Assembly (NCBI GenBank): GCA_964016885.1
Contig: OZ024740.1
Location: 221,216,001-221,280,000 of the forward strand
Direction: 5' to 3'
Source: Eledone cirrhosa
Taxonomy: Eukaryota
DNA: 64,000 bases
Positions within the stretch are counted from its first letter, which is position 1, and every line of letters begins with the position of its first letter. This document shows positions 15,120 to 63,964 of this stretch, piece by piece. The notes below the pieces were generated by a model. The model made no database searches, was not told the DNA's origin, and saw nothing but the letters and a program-made list of their open reading frames with translations. Made by a program: the position numbers and the translations under genes.

Positions 15120-15242
15120 TACTTGATCACACGAATGTCTATTTTTGTTAATATTTTGAATTAATATATATATATACATATATGTGTGTGTTTATATATG
15201 TATATATATGCTGTAAGTATATATGTATGTATGTAATGTAAA

Positions 15243-15848
15243 ATCGCTCTCGAGTGCTACTGGTAATATGTAACCCAGTAAACCTGTCTCATGGTCATCG
15301 GCGACTAAACCGGCAACCCATCCCAGCTTGCTTGGTGAGGAAGGTGATATTTGGACACCCTACGCGATGAAATACAAGACCCGACAAAGGCGGAGGAACT
15401 CATCAGAGTCAACGGCCATCCAAATAGTACTTTTTTATTTTTTTTTTACATGGGAGTAAAAGGCCCTCCTTTCTAGGAGAGGGAAACTCTGACAAAAAAA
15501 AACCTGCGGCTTTGGAAGCATCCGATGATGTTGACCAGTTCTCCTTTTCGGGTAGTGTTTTCGATGCTCAGAGAGTGGGATTGGTCGAGTACAAGGCCTT
15601 TCCCCACTTAACAAACCATCAAAGCACAGGCATTGCTTGTTCAGGATAAGTTACAGGTTTGTGTGACAGGCCGTAGCCTAAAAGTGCACCAAACTCTATA
15701 ATCTGACAAGCGATTGCAGTACTCTTAGCAGAGTTTGCCGCCATCATGTATGTATGTATGTATGTATGTATGTATGTATGTATGTATGTATGTATGTATG
15801 TATGTATGTATGAATGTATGTATGTATGTATGTATGTGTGTATGTATG
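15243..15848 (+). mobile_element. Bipartite non-autonomous RTE-derived element (family A) with (TATG)n tail
   Basis: The 3' end is nearly identical to the end of the RTE zinc-finger fragment at 27450-27507. The head is homologous to 28008-28400, and another copy lies at 63616-63964. Tail 15747-15848. Confidence 0.75.
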
Positions 15849-18800
15849 TCTCTTTCTCTTAATTTCGAGTATATTTTTTTTGACTGGCCACCTTCCTGGT
15901 GGCAAGGTTGTAAAAGAAAAGAAATTGTCATCCCTTGAATCGCAAGAATGTTTTGCAAATTTTGAAGGTGCCAGCTATCGCAGCCATTTGTAGACTATGA
16001 ATTAGGGAGCTGCGCTTTTTGTCCGCAAATCCAAGTTTAGTCATACTTTGGTCCAAGCGGCTGGGTATATAACCCGTAGCTCCAATAATGATGGGTATGA
16101 AGCTAAAGGTGTATCTTCGGATACTGGATTTGTAAACTCCTCATCAATGGTCCGTAGATGTCCTCCTTCTCCTGTATTTTTCTGACAACGTTTACATCAA
16201 GTGGGCAGCTGATCTCCACAACAGAACACGTTTTCAATGTGTGGTCCCAAACAACAATATCAGGCCGGTTGTGCTTTAATTTGGTGGCAGTTTTTATTCC
16301 TTAGTGCCATCTGTCTCAATATATTCTTCCTCGTTTGTTGTTAATTTTGTTTTCCGAAGTGCGTTCCAGATGGTTCTAGCTATTCCATCGTGTCTCATGG
16401 GAGGTAGTAGCGAGATGACATTCTTTCGCAGCTAGCAACAATGTGGCTTACATTTATTGTCAGCTGCTGGCCCTCCTCTTTTGTGCAGCAGATATTTGGT
16501 AGGGAGTTCTTGTTCCTGTATTGCATAGAGATATCCCTCAAGGTGTGATGTCATAAACCTGTCGGAACTCCATGCCAGGCTTTTTGAGTGGTTTATCCCC
16601 TCTATGGTCTGTGTTTTACGCCTCAAGTATCCATGCACAACTTTTTCTGTAAATTGGTCAATTTTTTTAATCTTGTTTGAACATTGAATAGGATCTTCCG
16701 ATTTCTCTGGGTGAGAGATTTATATCAGGCTTTATTCCATATCTCTCCTCCAGATCAGTCGCTATTCTAATGATATTATTTTTTTCACGCTCATAAACCT
16801 GGGCAAGATGGTTGCCAACCTTTTTCTTCTGTTGAAGGTGTTGCTTCAGTGTTACTATCCGGGTCTCATATGTTGTTAATATTGATTTTAGACCCCGGCC
16901 ACCTTCCTTGCGTGAGAAGTATAGCCTATCCACATCACCATTGATGTTAAAGTTCCCAGTAACACTGAGAGGTTTTCGAGTTCTAACATCAATCTCACTT
17001 AGTTCTTGCAATGACCAGTTCAGCAGGCCAAATGTTGGCGTTAGAATTGGCACAGCATAAGTATTGTAGGCAATGTATTTGTTATATGCTGACAGTTCTG
17101 ATGATCATATTTTCTTTACTCTTCTGAGGTATTCAGTTCTGGTTCTCTCCTTATTTATGGGTCCATCATATCTGACATTCTCATCCTGTCCAAGATATCT
17201 GTAGTTGTCACCTGACTGCAGAAGTTGTATTGTCAGGCCGTTCATCTCTAGATTTCTAGAGGAGGGCACAGCTCTTCCACGCTTTACTGCCAAATATGCA
17301 CACTTGGACTCACCAATCATTTTGATGTCGGTTGAAAATTGTGTAATGAGGTCCAATTGTTTCTTGATGTCATTGATATTTGGCCCATACAACTTCAGGT
17401 CATCAACAAAGAAAAGATGGGAGATACTTCTGGGCCCACTTCTTTGTCCACCTTGTTTCCTGAGTAGGTAAGATAGTGGATTCAGTGAGAGAACGAAGAG
17501 TAGCACTGACAAGCTATCACCCTGAAAGATGCCCTTCTGGTAATGTATCTTATCAGTCTTAACTTGCTCCCTCTCACCTCTAAGGATCAAATTGGTGTAC
17601 CAGTTCTTGGTCAGGCGTTCAACAGCAGCTACCAATGGTTGTGGGACTTTAGCTAACTGTAAAGCCTTAATAATCCACCCATGAGGTACACTATCAAATG
17701 CTTTTTGATAGTCCAGCCACACCACAGTCATGTTTCTGCGATTCTTTGTTATTTTTTCCTGAATCATTTTGTTAGTTAGTAGGTGATCTATGCAACCCCA
17801 CACCTCCCACTTTCCACCAGCTTGCTCAGGTGTTATGATGTTGTTGGTAGCACAGTGATCCTTTAAGAACAGGTTAAGGCACCCAGTATATAATTTATAC
17901 ATGATGTTTTGGCAGGCTATTGGGCGGTAATTTTTAGCAAGGGTGGTTTGGCTATTTTGGGGAATGAGGAGAGTAGTGGCAGTTGATAACCATCTGGGCA
18001 GTTCTTGTGTGCCTTTAATGGTTTCTGTAAACAGCCGTATGAGATATTGCCGATAGAAAGTGAAATTCTTCAACCAGTATCCTGTAATGAGGTCTGGGCC
18101 TGGTGATTTCCTATTCGACATTTTCTGTAGAGCTGTTTCCAGTATTGACCCATCTATGTCATATTGTTTTATCTGGACATGTTGGCAGTAGTCCTGTTCC
18201 AGTTCTTTTAGCCAATTAGCCTGTCTGTTGAATCCGTCATCCGTTTCCCATACAGATCTCCAGTAGCTCTCAACCTGTTCTTTTGAAGGGGTGTCGTTTA
18301 CAGGGATTGAGCTTTTGCCACCGAAGCTGCGATAAACTGATTTAGGATCTCTGGCAAACAATCTATTTAGCACTTGTCGTTTATGTGCTGTTGACTTATA
18401 TTTTAGTCTTTCCGTTGTAGCTGTGAGTTGTTGTTTCAACTGGTGTAATTTGGAGTTCAAAGTTTTAAATTTTGTATCTCCAAATCGTCTCTCTAACTTT
18501 TTCTTTAGGTCTTCCCGGTGTCGTGTGAAGTTGCTCTCTATGTTGCATTTCAGAACGACTGCGATGTGTGAGATACTTCGTCTCAGGGACAAAATTTTGG
18601 TTTTTAAATTTCGCATCCACGCTGGTTCAGGCTTTCTGTTTGTATCTTGATTGCATGGTTTTAGATGTGTGTTATATGATAGCAATGTGACAGCTGAAAC
18701 ATGTAACAAAACATTAAGCGTTTCAAATGTCGTTTCTACACCTTTCGATCGTATAGCCTTCAGATAATTGCCAGCTATTTCGTTCACCGCTTCCAATTCA

Positions 18801-19755
18801 AATTTAGTGGGTTCTTTACTGATTCTGGTGTTGTATGGTCAGTCACTCACATTAAGGCTGTGTATCTCTTGAAACATATCGTTCCATGTCACTTGTAGGG
18901 TGTCCACAAGTTTTTGGTGCTCTGTTTGTTTAGTAGAGTTCAGTAGAGTCATGAATTTCAGCCTCATTGTTGATGTGGTGACAATTACTACTAGAGTTAG
19001 CTGACCTTTCTCGCTGTTCTTCAGTGGAAGTGGGATGGATTTCAGCAAAATTGTTGGTGAGCTGTTCACTGTTAGATTTAGCTGGCCATTCTCTTTGTCT
19101 GTCAGTGGAGGTGGGGTGGTTGTCTACAAGGGCTGTATTTGTAGTATCACTCAATTCAGTTAGATGTATCAATTTACATTCAAAGTTTCGACAAAGTTCT
19201 GTCAGAATCAACTTTAAAGTTATTCACAGCTTGGGTAATATTTCTTTTCGGTTAGTTTTTAATTCTACAACTGTGTTTTAAACGTTTTTCTTGAATCGTT
19301 TGAATCGAGAACAAAAAGAACCGTTACTTAGTATATTTCTTTATGAATGTAATATAATATAACAACGCTGTATTTATATGTTAAAGTTTATGTATCATTC
19401 ATATTCATATAAATAGGTGTTCTACAACTTATTCACAACATATTCACAGTTCAAACACTTATGTTTTTGTTTCTGAATCGAAAACGTTACTTTTATATTT
19501 CTTTATAAATGTAATATAACAACGTTGCATTTATATGTTAAAGAGTATGTATCGTTCATATATCATAAGTGTATGTATCGTTCATATAAATAGGTGTTTT
19601 ACAACACACTTACGGTTCAAACAGTTATGTAGAATTATTGTATGTAATCTTACCGCGTAATGTAGCTCAACTTTTTCCAATATATGGTATGTTGCCTTCA
19701 TGTAAGCCGTAATTACACACGTCCGATTATCGGACACTGACCACAACGGTCACCA
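15849..19755 (-). mobile_element. R4/Dong-like non-LTR retrotransposon A (RT + REL endonuclease), near full length but disrupted
   Basis: ORF 17105-18796 has KSPGPD, NYRPIAC, WLDYQKAFDSVPH, GIFQGDSLS and HLFFVDDLKLY. It continues to RKEGGRGL, AIQEQE, RHD, HNRPDIVVWD and VEISCP...KE (REL). Bounded by (CATA)n on both sides. Confidence 0.92.
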
Positions 19756-19818
19756 TGTATGTATGTATGTATGTATGTATGTATGTATGTATGTATGTAT
19801 GTATGTATGTATGTATGT

Positions 19819-21428
19819 TCTTCTGGTTTTATAATTTCACAAATATTTCCCAATAGAGAGAGAGAGTCGGTTTCTAACATAGGCACAAGACTCTCTCATT
19901 GGAATTTACACAACTTCAACTAGGTATATTATGTATGTATGTCTGTGTAGATATGGATGTTATTGTATGTGTGGATGTGTATGTTTTGAGTTGTATGTGT
20001 GCATGTGTATATACTTTACATTTGTACATGTGTATATGCAGTTATTAGATGCAAAATTTTTGGAATGTTTTACATATTTTTACTGTTCCATTAATGGATT
20101 GTACTTGTAGTTTCCTAACTAGTTGTGTTCTTTCTGTTCCTGTGAAGCCCAGCTTCTCAGGATTTGTATTGAGGCAGTTACTAACATATCCCAGTGCCCC
20201 AATAATCACAGGCATAAATCTGAAGGTGTAATCAGGGTGGTGTATCTGCAGATTTCTCATCAGTTCTGCATACATATTCTCCTTTTCACTAATCTTTGAT
20301 ATTATATTGGCATCTGCTGGGTAGCTAATTTCCACTACTGTGCATGCTTTCTTCTCCCTGTCCCATATCATAATATCTGGTCTGTTATGCCTGCATTTTA
20401 TTGGGGTTTTTACTGGAACATTCCACCTGTACTCTTTCATATTATGTACATGTATGTCTTCCACATTGCTGTAGCTTTTAATGTGTTTATTATCGGGGCT
20501 ATCTTTTTCACGAACTGCATTGTACAGTGTTTTGGTCACTACATAATGCCTCATAGGTAGATAGTACCGCGATGACATCTTTGGACAGCTGCTGATGACA
20601 TGGGTGATATCCTCGATGTTAGTTCTGCAGAGTTTGCACTTGTTATCACATCTAGGTGTTTTGCCTGCATCCCTATCTCTCTTGTGAATCAGGTATTTCG
20701 TGTTAATCTCCTGTTCTTGGATTGCAAAAGCGTATCCTTCAAAGTGGGAGCCAATATAGCGGTTGTTGGTCCAAGATAGACTACTTTCCTTATCTATATT
20801 ACTGTCACTCTGGAGCTTCCTGGCAACATATCCATGCATGATTTTTTCATCTATGGATTCACTGCGATACTGCTGAGCGACATACATGGGTGTGAGTTTT
20901 TGATTATCACACAGAGAATATCTCTCGAGGAGTTCCTTCCCAACTCTCATGATCTTATCTGTTTCATGCAGATAGACTTGCTCGAGAAACGGGCTCCTAC
21001 TCTTCGAGGTTCGTAGATGTTGTCGGAGAGATATGATGCGACATTCAAATGTTGTCTGGACTGATGTTAGGCCTCTGCCTCCCTGCTTACGTTTCAAGTA
21101 AAGGTGGTCTATGTCACTGTTGATGTGGAAGTTTCCGGTGTTGTTTAGTATTTTTCGAGTTCCAGCATCAACTGCTCGGGTCGGTAGTTTTTTGCCAAGT
21201 GGGTGTCTTTGTTCTTGGGGACCAGTAATGTTTATGCTAATGTCAACCATTCTACTATAAGTGTATCTCCCTTAAGAACTTGTTAGTAGAGGTCAGTAAG
21301 ATACCTCCGATAGAATATCAGTTTTTTGTACCAGTAGCCGACAATCATGTCTCTTCCTGGTGTTTTCTTATCTTGGAGTTTTCCTATCAGTCTCAAGGGT
21401 GCCTTCACTTTTTTCTTATGTATTTGCT
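19819..21428 (-). mobile_element. R4/Dong-like element B, 5'-truncated, RT core internally deleted, zinc knuckle and REL intact
   Basis: ORF 20045-21250 has KQGGRGL, CKLC..HVISSC, NRPDIMIWD and VVEIS..KE. Upstream KTPGRD..LVPKNKDTHLAKNYRP joins directly to post-RT sequence at ~21175. Confidence 0.9.
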
Positions 21429-21526
21429 GTATGTATGTATGTATGTATGTATGTATGTATGTATGTATGTATGTATGTATGTATGTATGTATGTATGTAT
21501 GAATGTATGTATGTATGTATGTATGT

Positions 21527-21990
21527 AGGAAACGCCTTTCCAGAAATAGTTCTGGAAAGAAGAGGAAATGTGTGACGTACGAACGAGTATCCTCTACTTC
21601 CAACTAACTTACCCTCTATTTCAGGGTTCCGGCCGACAGGATGGAAAATATATTGGCCTGGAGGACGGTGAGGGAGACGCACTGAAACAGCCAATCCACC
21701 CCGCGGCTCTCGCATCTGCGGGCAGCCAACTCCGCTCCGATAGCAGTAAATAGGGATGTGGTCCGGGGGCCCAAGAACGCCGGAAGTCACCAATGCAACA
21801 GGCTCTACCACAAACCTATCAGAGAACGGCCGAGACTTGGACAGTTTGTCCTCTTTGGCCTGTCGGGTAGCAGAGCCTTGGCTGGTAGCCGAACACACCA
21901 GGTTGCCTCAAGCTGTCGACTTCTCCATCATGTCGGTCGAAACCACGGGTGGGACAACCTATTAGGGTAGGTATAGGGTGGTAATCTTCA
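21527..21990 (-). mobile_element. 3' fragment of a CRE-like REL retrotransposon
   Basis: GSATRQAKEDKLSK..FVVEPVALVTSGVLGP, then (frameshift) IGAELAARR..DWLFQCVSLTVLQANIFSIL, resembles the CRE-clade C-terminus (PIAVETxGxxGP..QRISxAIQRGN). The 3' end abuts (CATA)n. Confidence 0.65.
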
Positions 21991-27179: not shown

Positions 27180-27507
27180 ATGTGTATCTCTCGAAACGTT
27201 CGGTGTCTCCATTGAATTGGTGTGCCCTGAGTGTGGAAAGATTTGCTTAAGCAAATCTGGTCTCAGGAGCCATAGTCGCAGTCATGTTCAAAGAGAACCA
27301 GTGAACTATGATCTCCACGGTATTGTGAAGGTTCACAGGCAACCTGAATGCAAGACCTGAGGTCAGGGAGATCCATGGTTGTCGTCGGTGTGCGAAGAAC
27401 TGCAAGTCTCTAACAGGCTTGAAAAGCCATATCCGAGCGTCACACATCTGAACCTGACAAGCGATTGCAATACTCTTAGCAGAGTTTACAGCCATCATGT
27501 ATGTATG
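27180..27507 (+). mobile_element. 3' end of an RTE-clade LINE with C2H2 zinc fingers and TATG tail
   Basis: CPECGKICLSKSGLRSHSRSH and CRRCAKNCKSLTGLKSHIRASH, then gcgattgcaatactcttagcagagtttacagccatc-atgtatgtatg. Confidence 0.75.
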
Positions 27508-27870
27508 CAGTTACTAACATATCCCAGTGTCCCAATATTCACAGGCATAAATCTGAAGGTATAGTCAGGGTGGAATATCTGCAGATTTCTCATTAGTTCT
27601 GCATAGATATTCTCTTTTTCGCTAATCTTTGATATTATATTGGCATCTGCTGGGCAGCTAACTTCCACTACTGTGCATGCCTTCTTTCCCCTATCCCATA
27701 TCATTATATCTGGTCTGTTATCCATGCATTTTATTGGGGTTTTTACTGGAACATTCCACCAGTACTCTTTAATATTATGTATATTTATGTCTTCCACGTA
27801 GCTTTTAATGTGTTTATTATCGGGGTTATTTTTTCTACGGATTGCATCGTACAGTGTTTTGGCCACTATA
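27508..27870 (-). mobile_element. REL-domain fragment of R4/Dong-like family B
   Basis: ORF 27495-27890 (YWWNVPVKTPIKC..NRPDIMIWD..VVEVSCPAD) is highly similar to 20175-20540. Confidence 0.85.
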
Positions 27871-28007
27871 GATAGATATCCGAGCGTCACACCTGAATCT
27901 GAAAAGCGATTGCAATACTCTTGTCAGAGTTTGAGCCATCATGTATGTATGTATGTATGTATGTATGTATGTATGTATGTATGTATGTATGTATGTATGT
28001 ATGTATG

Positions 28008-28710
28008 TCAGGTCACCACTTGGTGCTACTGGTAACATGTATTCCAGTACAACCTGTCTCATGGTCGGGTCGTTGGCGACTAAACTGGCAACCCCACTAA
28101 GGTTTCTTGGTGAGGAGGGTGACTTTGGACATCCTGCAGGACTAAAAACAAAACTTGTCAAAGGGCAAAGGAGCTCTTAAGAGTCAATGGCCATCCAAAA
28201 TCACCGGGAGAGATGACCCCTTAGCCTTTGTCAAGGCAGAATTCTAGGAGAAGGAAAACTCTGATATAACACCTGCAACTCTGATGGTATCCAATGATGT
28301 TGACTTGTTCTTCTTTTTGGTAAATATCATCTTGGTTAAGAGAGTGGGACTGGCTTTGTGCAGTGCCTTTGCTCACTATAAAAGCTTCACGGCACAGGCA
28401 TTGCTTTATATCTGGAGATTTCTCTGCACTTGTCGTCACATGGTACGAAGGGCCTAGCACTATGTGTCAATAATTGTCACAAGTGTAGTGTTTGTACCAG
28501 AGTTTTCAAGTCGCTGGCTGGACTAAAGTCACATTCGTTCAGCGCATCGGTAGGAGTTCTCCTACATGGATATAAAGTAGTGGCCGTACTTGAAAACGAG
28601 TTGGCAGCCACCATGTATGTATGTATGTATGTATGTATGTATGTATGTATGTATGTATGTATGTATGTATGTATGTATGTATGTATGTATGTATGTGTGT
28701 ATGTATGTAT
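28008..28710 (+). mobile_element. Bipartite RTE-derived element (family B) with C2H2 remnant and (TATG)n tail
   Basis: Head homologous to family A; tail reads HKCSVCTRVFKSLAGLKSH..gagttggcagccacc-(atgt)n. Near-identical inverted copy at 36809-37404. Confidence 0.78.
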
Positions 28711-36759: not shown

Positions 36760-37404
36760 ATACATACATACATACATACATACATACATACATACATACA
36801 TACATACATGGTGGCTGCCAACTCGTTTTCGAGTACGGCCACTACTTTATATCCATGTAGGAGAACCCCTACCGATGCGCTGAACGAGTGTGACTTTTTA
36901 GTCCAGCCAGCGACTTGAACACTCTGGTACAAACACTACACTTGTGACAATTATTGACACATAGTGCTGGGCCCATGGTACTATGTGACGAGAAGTGCAG
37001 AGAGATCTCCAGATATAAAGCAATGCCTGTGCCGTGAAGCTTTTATAGTGAGCAAAGGCACTGCACAAAGCCAGTCCCACTCTCTTAACCAAGATGATAT
37101 TTACCAAAAAGAAGAACAAGTCAACATCATTGGATACCATCAGGGTTGCAGGTGTTATATCAGAGTTTTCCTTCTCCTAGAATTCTGCCTTGACAAAGGC
37201 TAAGGGGTCATCTCTCCCGGTTTTTTTTGGATGGCCATTGACTCTTAAGAGCTCCTTTGCCCTTTGACAGGTTTGTTTTTAGTCCTGCAGGATGTCCAAA
37301 GTCACCCTCCTCACCAAGGAACCTTGGTGGGGTTGCCAGTTTAGTCGCCAACGACCCGACCATGAGACAGGTTGTACTGGGATACATGTTACCAGTAGCA
37401 CCAA
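36760..37404 (-). mobile_element. Bipartite RTE-derived element (family B), flanked by (CATA)n on both sides
   Basis: Reverse complement of 28020-28612; (CATA)n at 36760-36808 and 37405-37422. Confidence 0.8.
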
Positions 37405-62524: not shown

Positions 62525-63617
62525 GTTCTGTTTGCTCTTTTATACTCCACCGAAACCTGGACGCTATTCCGCAAACACACCAAATTGCTTGAGCGTTTTT
62601 AGCAGAAATGTCTAAGGCGCATATTCAACATCAAGTGGCAAGACAGAACTCCTGACATCCATGTTCTTATCAAAGCAGAATGTCCAAGCATTTAGTCGCA
62701 AGTAACATCTCAAATTCGCTTGACAGGACATATCGTCCGCATAAAAGAAAGCAGGATCCCGAAGCAATTTATTTACGGTGAGCTCCATCTTTGAAAAAGA
62801 CCTCAACACAAACCGAAAATGAGGTTCAGGGACAGCATCAAGAACAATCTCAAAGAGCTGCCATTTGATATAGACAACTGGGAGGAGATAGCTTTAAATA
62901 GGGCTGAGTGGAGAAAGTGTATAAAGGGCAGTTTCAAAACGTTTGAGAAATATCGTCTAGAACATAAACAACTGGAACGTTAGCTCCGGAAGGGCTGTGC
63001 TCACAGTTTTGATGAAGTGATCAGTAGTTGGACATGCAATTTCTGTCAGCATGTAGTCCCCTCAAAGTCTGGTTATGTTAATTATCTGAAGTCATATGAA
63101 AGCATAACCACCTGCAACACCACTCAACAAAGACCTGGTGAAACAAGGTGCGTGCTATACAACAAAGGGTATAGACCTAGTTCCGGACTAAAAGGACATA
63201 TGGTGGTACATAAATATTGTGTCATACAGGGTGACGCCACCGGTCCCGTGGAAAGCACAACTTCCTTCTGTCACCTGTATCCTAATCTATGCAGATCTAC
63301 AGCTGCCCTACAAAGTCATCTACGAAGTCATGGAAGTAGATAGGATGATAACGAAGAATCAATATGAGACGGCAATCGTCTGGGAAGACACTGCAATCCT
63401 CATGTATGTATGTATGTATGTATGTATGTATGTATGTATGTATGTATGTATGTATGTATGTATGTATGTATGTATGTACGTATGTATGTATCTGTGTGTG
63501 TGTATGTATGTATGTATGTATGTATGTATGTATGTATGTATGTACGTACGTATGTATGTGTGTGCATGTATGTATGTATGTATGTATGTATGTATGTATG
63601 TATGTATGTATGTATGT
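62525..63617 (+). mobile_element. 3' part of an RTE (BovB-like) LINE with three degenerate C2H2 fingers and (TATG)n tail
   Basis: LLYSTETWTL..CLRRIFNIKWQD..GHIVRI..RIPKQFIYGEL..NWEEIALNRAEWRK, followed by CNFC.., GLKGHMVVH and LQSHLRSH; tail 63402-63617. Confidence 0.85.
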
Positions 63618-63964
63618 CAACGGCTATCCAAATAGTACTTTTTTTTCACCTGGGAGTGAAAGGCCTCCAATTGTTATCACAACACCTTTCTAGGAGAGGG
63701 GAAACTCTGAAAGAAAAAAACCCTGCGGCTTCCAAAACATCCGATGATGTTGACCGGTTCTCCTTTTTGGGTAGTGTTTTCGATGCTCAGAGAGGGGGAT
63801 TGGTCGAGTGCAAGGCCTTTACCCACTTAAAAAATCTTCAAAGCACTGGCATTGCTTGTTCAGGATATGTTATAGGTTCGTGTGGCCGGCCGTAGCCTAA
63901 AAGTGCACCAAACTCTATAATCTGACAAGCGATTGCAATACTCTTAGCAGAGTTTGTAGCCATC
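63616..63964 (+). mobile_element. 5'-truncated bipartite RTE-derived element (family A)
   Basis: Homologous to 15408-15746. Confidence 0.8.

Follow-up and report, generated by a model that had tools for sequence, protein, structure and literature searches.

Layout of the stack

The window is a stretch of 64,000 nucleotides from the genome of Eledone cirrhosa (contig OZ024740.1, positions 221,216,001 to 221,280,000, forward strand). It contains a stack of four retroelements, named R, A, B and C, separated by three microsatellite tracts (Table 1). This arrangement had been proposed by an earlier, sequence-only reading, and the positions of all four elements and three tracts are confirmed by the repeat tracts themselves, the RVT_1 domain and family alignments. 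Absent from that reading was the fact that the 5' end of C adjoins (GA)/(GT) repeats and not CATA. Also omitted was the imperfect TATG tract that precedes R. A scan of Rfam returned microsatellite artefacts only and no ribozyme match.

Table 1. Elements and repeat tracts of the stack, in window coordinates.
Feature	Position	Strand	Remarks
Imperfect TA/TATG tract	15181..15240	+	5' of R; likely the remainder of R's target
R, non-autonomous RTE derivative with internal deletion	15243..15745	+	first ~460 bp and last ~47 bp of the parent
(ATGT)26 tract	15746..15849	unstranded	separates R from the 3' end of A
A, R4/Dong-clade element, near full-length, broken	15850..19754	-	RVT_1 domain, E 1e-21
(ATGT)16 tract	19755..19818	unstranded	separates the 5' end of A from the 3' end of B
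B, second R4/Dong family, 5'-truncated copy	19819..21428	-	CCHC knuckle and REL kept
(TGTA)25 tract	21428..21527	unstranded	between B (5' junction) and C (3' end); may be the expanded tail of C
C, CRE-like element, old 3' remnant	21528..~21990	-	end of REL and 3' UTR

Relatives of each element were sought in the 3.0 Gb assembly. For each search, 40 hits were scored and loci were taken from the best 30, with the window copy excluded; such samples are biased toward young, similar copies.

Elements A and B and their proteins

The window copy of A matches its full-length family of 4.2 kb (~4215 bp) at 96%. It is broken by a deletion of ~280-320 bp at position 19179 that takes out the start of the ORF, with stops and frameshifts besides. 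The family has 1151 first-look candidates in the assembly, and three of the 17 loci fetched for full-length copies (L185, L186 and L199) retain an intact stop-to-stop frame of 1172-1174 aa. In L185, RT, CCHC knuckle and PD-(D/E)xK endonuclease motifs are all placed in this single frame, which matches RVT_1 at E 3e-24 and, below the cut-off, zf-RVT at E 9e-5.

The best PDB matches of a predicted model of the A-family protein are R2 proteins, at E 2e-34. Unlike R2, the N-terminal 370 aa of A hold no CCHH motif by inspection; the N-terminus of B was not recovered. Three confident helices span residues 22-74 of the model. The N-terminal domain found no match in Pfam and, as a single-sequence model with a pLDDT of 63, none in Foldseek at E <= 0.001.

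In B, ~940 bp of the RT are deleted internally at position 21178, leaving pieces of the RT, the CCHC knuckle and REL. Its family counts 399 first-look candidates, and the A and B proteins are 53% identical over 608 aa.

A and B are specific for CATA repeats

We scored a flank of A or B as positive if 25 nt hold at least two CATA units in the sense of the element. As background, 23,940 random 25-nt windows were drawn from 60 evenly spaced 10-kb stretches (600 kb); 281 of them (1.2%) reach this score, so chance has no power to explain the junctions described here.

Within the best 30 of 40 hits, window copy excluded, 25/29 3' junctions of A and 27/29 of B lie in (CATA)n. The same repeat is found at the other end. 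CATA lies upstream of all 29 full-length A copies (again from the best 30 of 40 hits), at 20/20 truncated A junctions, namely those of the 29 loci with the junction inside the locus, and at 15/19 B junctions, where 20/29 loci were extended and the reference locus was dropped. Pooled, CATA occurs at 116 of 126 junctions, the copy sets overlapping, and the opposite polarity, checked at 106 junctions, at none. After the 3' ends of A and B alike, the target picks up at ACAT, as tabulated by phase. No clear target-site duplication was seen for A in its imperfect tracts, though one copy, L194, is suggestive.

A repeat that lies upstream of a truncation point is no tail of the element itself, and therefore speaks for target specificity. 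A and B are CATA-repeat-specific, with the same repeat at both junctions and one orientation. (CATA)n is thus not confined to their 3' ends, nor is their orientation random, and the earlier claim of (CATA)n insertion with fixed strand polarity holds for both. That they have no real specificity, CATA being their own tail and the clustering a passive build-up in repeat-rich regions, is almost certainly wrong: the genome is indeed microsatellite-rich, with an RY run in 10% of random windows, but the 5' junction counts of both families largely refute it, and a third R4 family of the same genome, D, uses TAA.

A probable tetranucleotide branch of R4/Dong

In RT trees, rooted at the midpoint and built with no named R4 reference or outgroup, A and B form one clade with support of 100/100. 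It is long-stemmed and set apart from TAA-flanked relatives; the sister protein of A comes from Argonauta hians. By eye, the RT motifs of A and B follow those of R4_Hmel and R4_AL rather than HERO/CRE (supplement of PMC7650587, in excerpt). Family D is placed in the TAA clade; (TAA)n was present at every 3' end that could be located (24/24), and in 6/30 loci no end was findable.

Five metagenome contigs also fall into the A/B clade. Three have a visible junction, and all three junction-bearing contigs show (CTTA)n in sense: L414 at both ends, L415 at the 3' end and L418 at the 5' end. These flanks suggest an R4 sublineage aimed at AC(A/T)T tetranucleotides, although three contigs make a small sample and may stem from few hosts.

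In most insects, molluscs and cnidarians, R4/Dong elements are described as specific for (TAA)n (PMC7998251, in excerpt). This target of Dong proper is not that of A and B, which have CATA: theirs is a new specificity inside the known R4/Dong kind, and probably a trait of the whole sublineage. We found no CATA- or CTTA-specific R4 element in the literature, including the accessible parts of PMC3124438 and PMC5035012; Repbase reports, subscription papers and supplements beyond those consulted may hold one.

C carries CATA at its 3' end

C, of which ~460 bp remain, matches a CRE-like ORF (L342) in its C-terminal endonuclease at E 1e-9, and is 78-84% identical to its best relatives. Full-length homologs of the L342 ORF, one CRE-like homolog being from Octopus sinensis, have RT motifs that by eye resemble SLACS and CRE1; C itself keeps the REL end only. 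A CRE-like match within a frame of 3370 aa was rejected as a tandem-repeat artefact. No young or full-length copy of the C family was found.

The sequence-only reading had C share the CATA targeting of A and B. TACA units follow 15/27 3' ends of the C family, after two loci not reaching the end were dropped. In the set with both ends, from which the window copy was excluded together with a tandem pair, CATA occurs at the 3' end in 13/27 loci and at the inferred 5' junction in 2/27 (p=0.002); given the age of the copies and the use of alignment to place their 5' junctions, 5' tracts that have decayed might go unnoticed. CATA is thus largely a feature of the 3' end, and the proposal of shared targeting is not supported. 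The simpler reading is that CATA at the 3' end of C is its own tail.

We regard it as unlikely that the C family targets CATA as well, whether its copies insert at the upstream border of a short TACA motif or have lost their 5' tracts to decay. Such targeting would fit the age of the copies and the fact that most intact 3' ends run on into TACA in a fixed phase, but 3' units survive (13-15/27) where 5' units do not, which speaks against it. Nor were target duplications found around C copies when looked for, and the 3' ends of thirty loci of another CRE-like group lack, by eye, a CATA tail. At 5/27 C-family loci, two of them a tandem pair, the next element past the 3' tract is A, B or RTE.

RTE elements share the tracts

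R joins the two ends of an RTE-type APE-RT element that is present at full length in L182; the 5' end of R has 3826 first-look candidates in the assembly. The parent (L181, L182) has a single APE and RT ORF, a very short 3' UTR and a target duplication. Its match to Exo_endo_phos is weak (E 0.006, below the cut-off), and we assign it to the RTE clade by its motifs.

R lies in AT/ATGT tracts on the strand opposite A and B, with repeat on both sides. Among its copies (best 30 hits), TATG is present in 19/29 upstream flanks, and 28/29 have an RY run; the 3' flank holds TATG in 17/29 and begins with ATGTATGT in 12/29. Where both ends were located, an AT/GT-type microsatellite stands on both sides in 18/20. 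A second RTE-derived family (20/40 hits fetched, 5 of them without a 5' end in the region) has a microsatellite upstream of 15/15 full-length copies, and three copies in (AT)n carry (AT)n downstream. The 3' ends of the parent adjoin TATG in 7/29 and, by eye, (AT)n in 15/29: what adjoins the 3' end is often in keeping with the upstream tract, and an own (TATG)n tail is not a trait of the parent. Its truncation junctions are microsatellite in 8/10 by eye and in 3/10 by the TATG rule. In L182 an interrupted tract is duplicated at both ends, which suggests that the tract was present before RTE insertion. Another RTE copy, L138, has ATGT downstream and (GT)n upstream.

An RTE 3' end lies past the downstream tract in 5/29 A loci and 3-4/29 B loci, compared with 6/20 random tracts (p=0.19). 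An RTE 5' end lies past the upstream tract of A in 8/29, compared with 5/20. Among random tracts, 9/20 touch an RTE end of any kind. RTE 3' ends beside tracts are always on the TATG strand.

The sequence-only reading had RTE families manufacture (TATG)n landing sites. The microsatellites on both sides of R and upstream of the second family, the few TATG 3' ends of the parent and the lack of enrichment of RTE ends beside A and B targets all go against this, and C, not R, is the oldest element in the window. RTE is likely a fellow tenant of the tracts and not the maker of the sites of A and B. It probably adds to the number of tracts, some of which it may have founded, given the contacts of random tracts with RTE, the ATGTATGT flanks and L138.

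A broader scheme would have an undescribed, widespread R4 sublineage on AC(A/T)T repeats tracking the antisense of the host's RTE tetranucleotide, with RTE, R4 and CRE co-maintaining a self-renewing safe-harbour niche and the R4 target co-evolving with RTE ends; we hold this to be quite unlikely. The antisense pairing in it is (CATA)n with (TATG)n in octopods and (CTTA)n with (TAAG)n elsewhere.

Also quite unlikely is that RTE creates the (TATG)n tails and that R4-like and CRE-like lineages both target them. In its favour, tracts often have an RTE 3' end next to them, RTE elements have been published as microsatellite progenitors (PMC2887409, in excerpt), and the RTE element SR3 carries a (TAAG)n tail whose reverse complement is the (CTTA)n of the A/B subclade (excerpt of PMC1291365). 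Against these stand the RTE copies with microsatellite on both sides, including the three (AT)n copies, the missing enrichment beside A and B targets, the want of 5' CATA in C and the greater age of C than of R in the window. Joint targeting of RTE-made tails by R4 and CRE is thus unsupported. Our verdict is that A, B and RTE share a microsatellite niche, not a landing system built by RTE.

Order of insertion and proposed mechanism

Measured against its top hits, the window copy has a median identity of 0.83 for C, 0.93 for R, 0.96 for B and 0.99 for A, values that come from 100-nt segments and are biased upward. From this ranking and the TATG on the far side of R, the elements likely inserted in the order C, R, B, A into one repeatedly split tract. 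Among public-run contigs compared with C and the left flank, itself repetitive, no empty allele or orthologue was found. The founding tract in the window was possibly the tail of C.

R2 and R4 elements nick their target with the REL endonuclease and then carry out target-primed reverse transcription. By analogy, the REL domain of A and B would nick the TATG strand and prime reverse transcription there. The target might be recognised by their putative Myb-like N-terminal domain of three helices. Each insertion would split the tract, and slippage could regrow both halves, yielding new sites and, in time, stacks. RTE may enter when its AT 3' end base-pairs with the target, following a published model (PMC6007223, in excerpt).

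Altogether, we consider it well supported that A and B represent two families within a single R4/Dong sublineage, inserted in (CATA)n in fixed orientation, likely since their protein recognises and nicks the repeat, and that the stack likely arose from several lineages using one tract in turn.

Comparison with known systems

Dong, DongAg, DongBg and the ostracod Dong resemble A and B in encoding RT and a C-terminal REL in one ORF, in lacking zinc fingers at the N-terminus, and in inserting into microsatellites with fixed polarity (PMC3812793 and PMC7998251, both in excerpt). R4/Dong proteins begin with a divergent Myb/SANT-like domain (PMC7998251, in excerpt). In contrast to Dong, the target of A and B is a tetranucleotide, (CATA)n, and the rest of their clade, which is separate and long-stemmed, has (CTTA)n wherever a junction is visible.

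Waldo elements of the R1 clade (WaldoAg1/2, WaldoFs1) target ACAY microsatellites, a class that includes the (ACAT)n of A and B; they are, however, classed as APE-type (PMC3812793, in excerpt), whereas A and B use REL, so the match in target would be convergence. Togen, in (TG)n, and some HERO families are microsatellite-specific REL elements like A and B, but belong to other clades and have other targets (PMC4640811, in excerpt).

The accessible text of PMC6007223 correlates the 3' repeat of RTE elements with the insertion site. Compared with the RTEs of that paper and of PMC2887409, as excerpted, the copies described here are embedded in pre-existing AT/ATGT tracts that flank them on either side, and have no obligate tail beyond about AT.

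In Octopus vulgaris, Dong-R4 elements are the most recently active LINE insertions, and an octopus RTE with a 3' microsatellite has been reported (PMC13282606 and PMC9115989, both in excerpt). Compared by description, these LINEs are likely the same families as ours or sister families. No target specificity is given for the octopus Dong-R4 in the available parts of PMC13282606, its supplement included, or of PMC9115989. Insertions in long repeats may be hard to map by short reads, which could lie behind the low count of non-reference Dong insertions in PMC9115989 (in excerpt).

The targeting of A and B helps account for the multiplying stacks of transposable elements and microsatellites in octopod genomes. 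The R4 families on TAA, CATA and CTTA form a natural series for finding the residues that set REL repeat specificity, a question that bears on R2-type genome-writing tools. CATA and TAA families coexist in one genome, and the A family is young, with intact ORFs.

R4 relatives with other flanking repeats, and a CRE-like group

Alongside families A and B, the same genome holds a third R4 family, D (L353-L382), which is of the canonical Dong type. (TAA)n stands at all 24 of its 3' ends that were located, and the family has several long open frames. Among metagenome R4 relatives, (CTTA)n in the element's sense flanks L414, L415 and L418, all in the A/B clade; L414, sister to B (96/82), has it at both ends. 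No junction is visible in L413 and L434.

The large, old CRE-like group L251-L280 (77,643 first-look candidates by protein search) has copies ending in AT-rich sequence, without CATA.

Arrays and 5' joining

Head-to-tail A-A and B-A arrays, with short CATA tracts between, are common (L096, L103, L109, L187, L188, L193, L195, L199, L285). In the full-length A copies L104, L110 and L193, part of the copy's 5' end occurs a second time, set off by CATA units, a pattern that suggests repeated attempts at 5' joining.

RTE-derived elements and a second stack

The window holds another transposable element/microsatellite stack besides the main one. Its 604-bp RTE-derived element belongs to a family (1296 first-look candidates) that is young, at 97-98% identity; an AT/TATG microsatellite lies upstream of 15/15 full-length copies among loci L493-L512.

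Repeat-associated features in the window
Feature	Position	Strand	Remarks
Second stack	27182-28710		RTE 3' fragment, short TATG, B fragment, RTE 3' end, (ATGT)16, 604-bp RTE-derived element, (ATGT)24
B fragment in stack		minus	without its 3' end
604-bp element in stack	28009-28612		3' end differs
604-bp family, other copy	36807-37404		
TATG tract, then 5'-truncated copy of R (non-autonomous RTE derivative)	63405-63964
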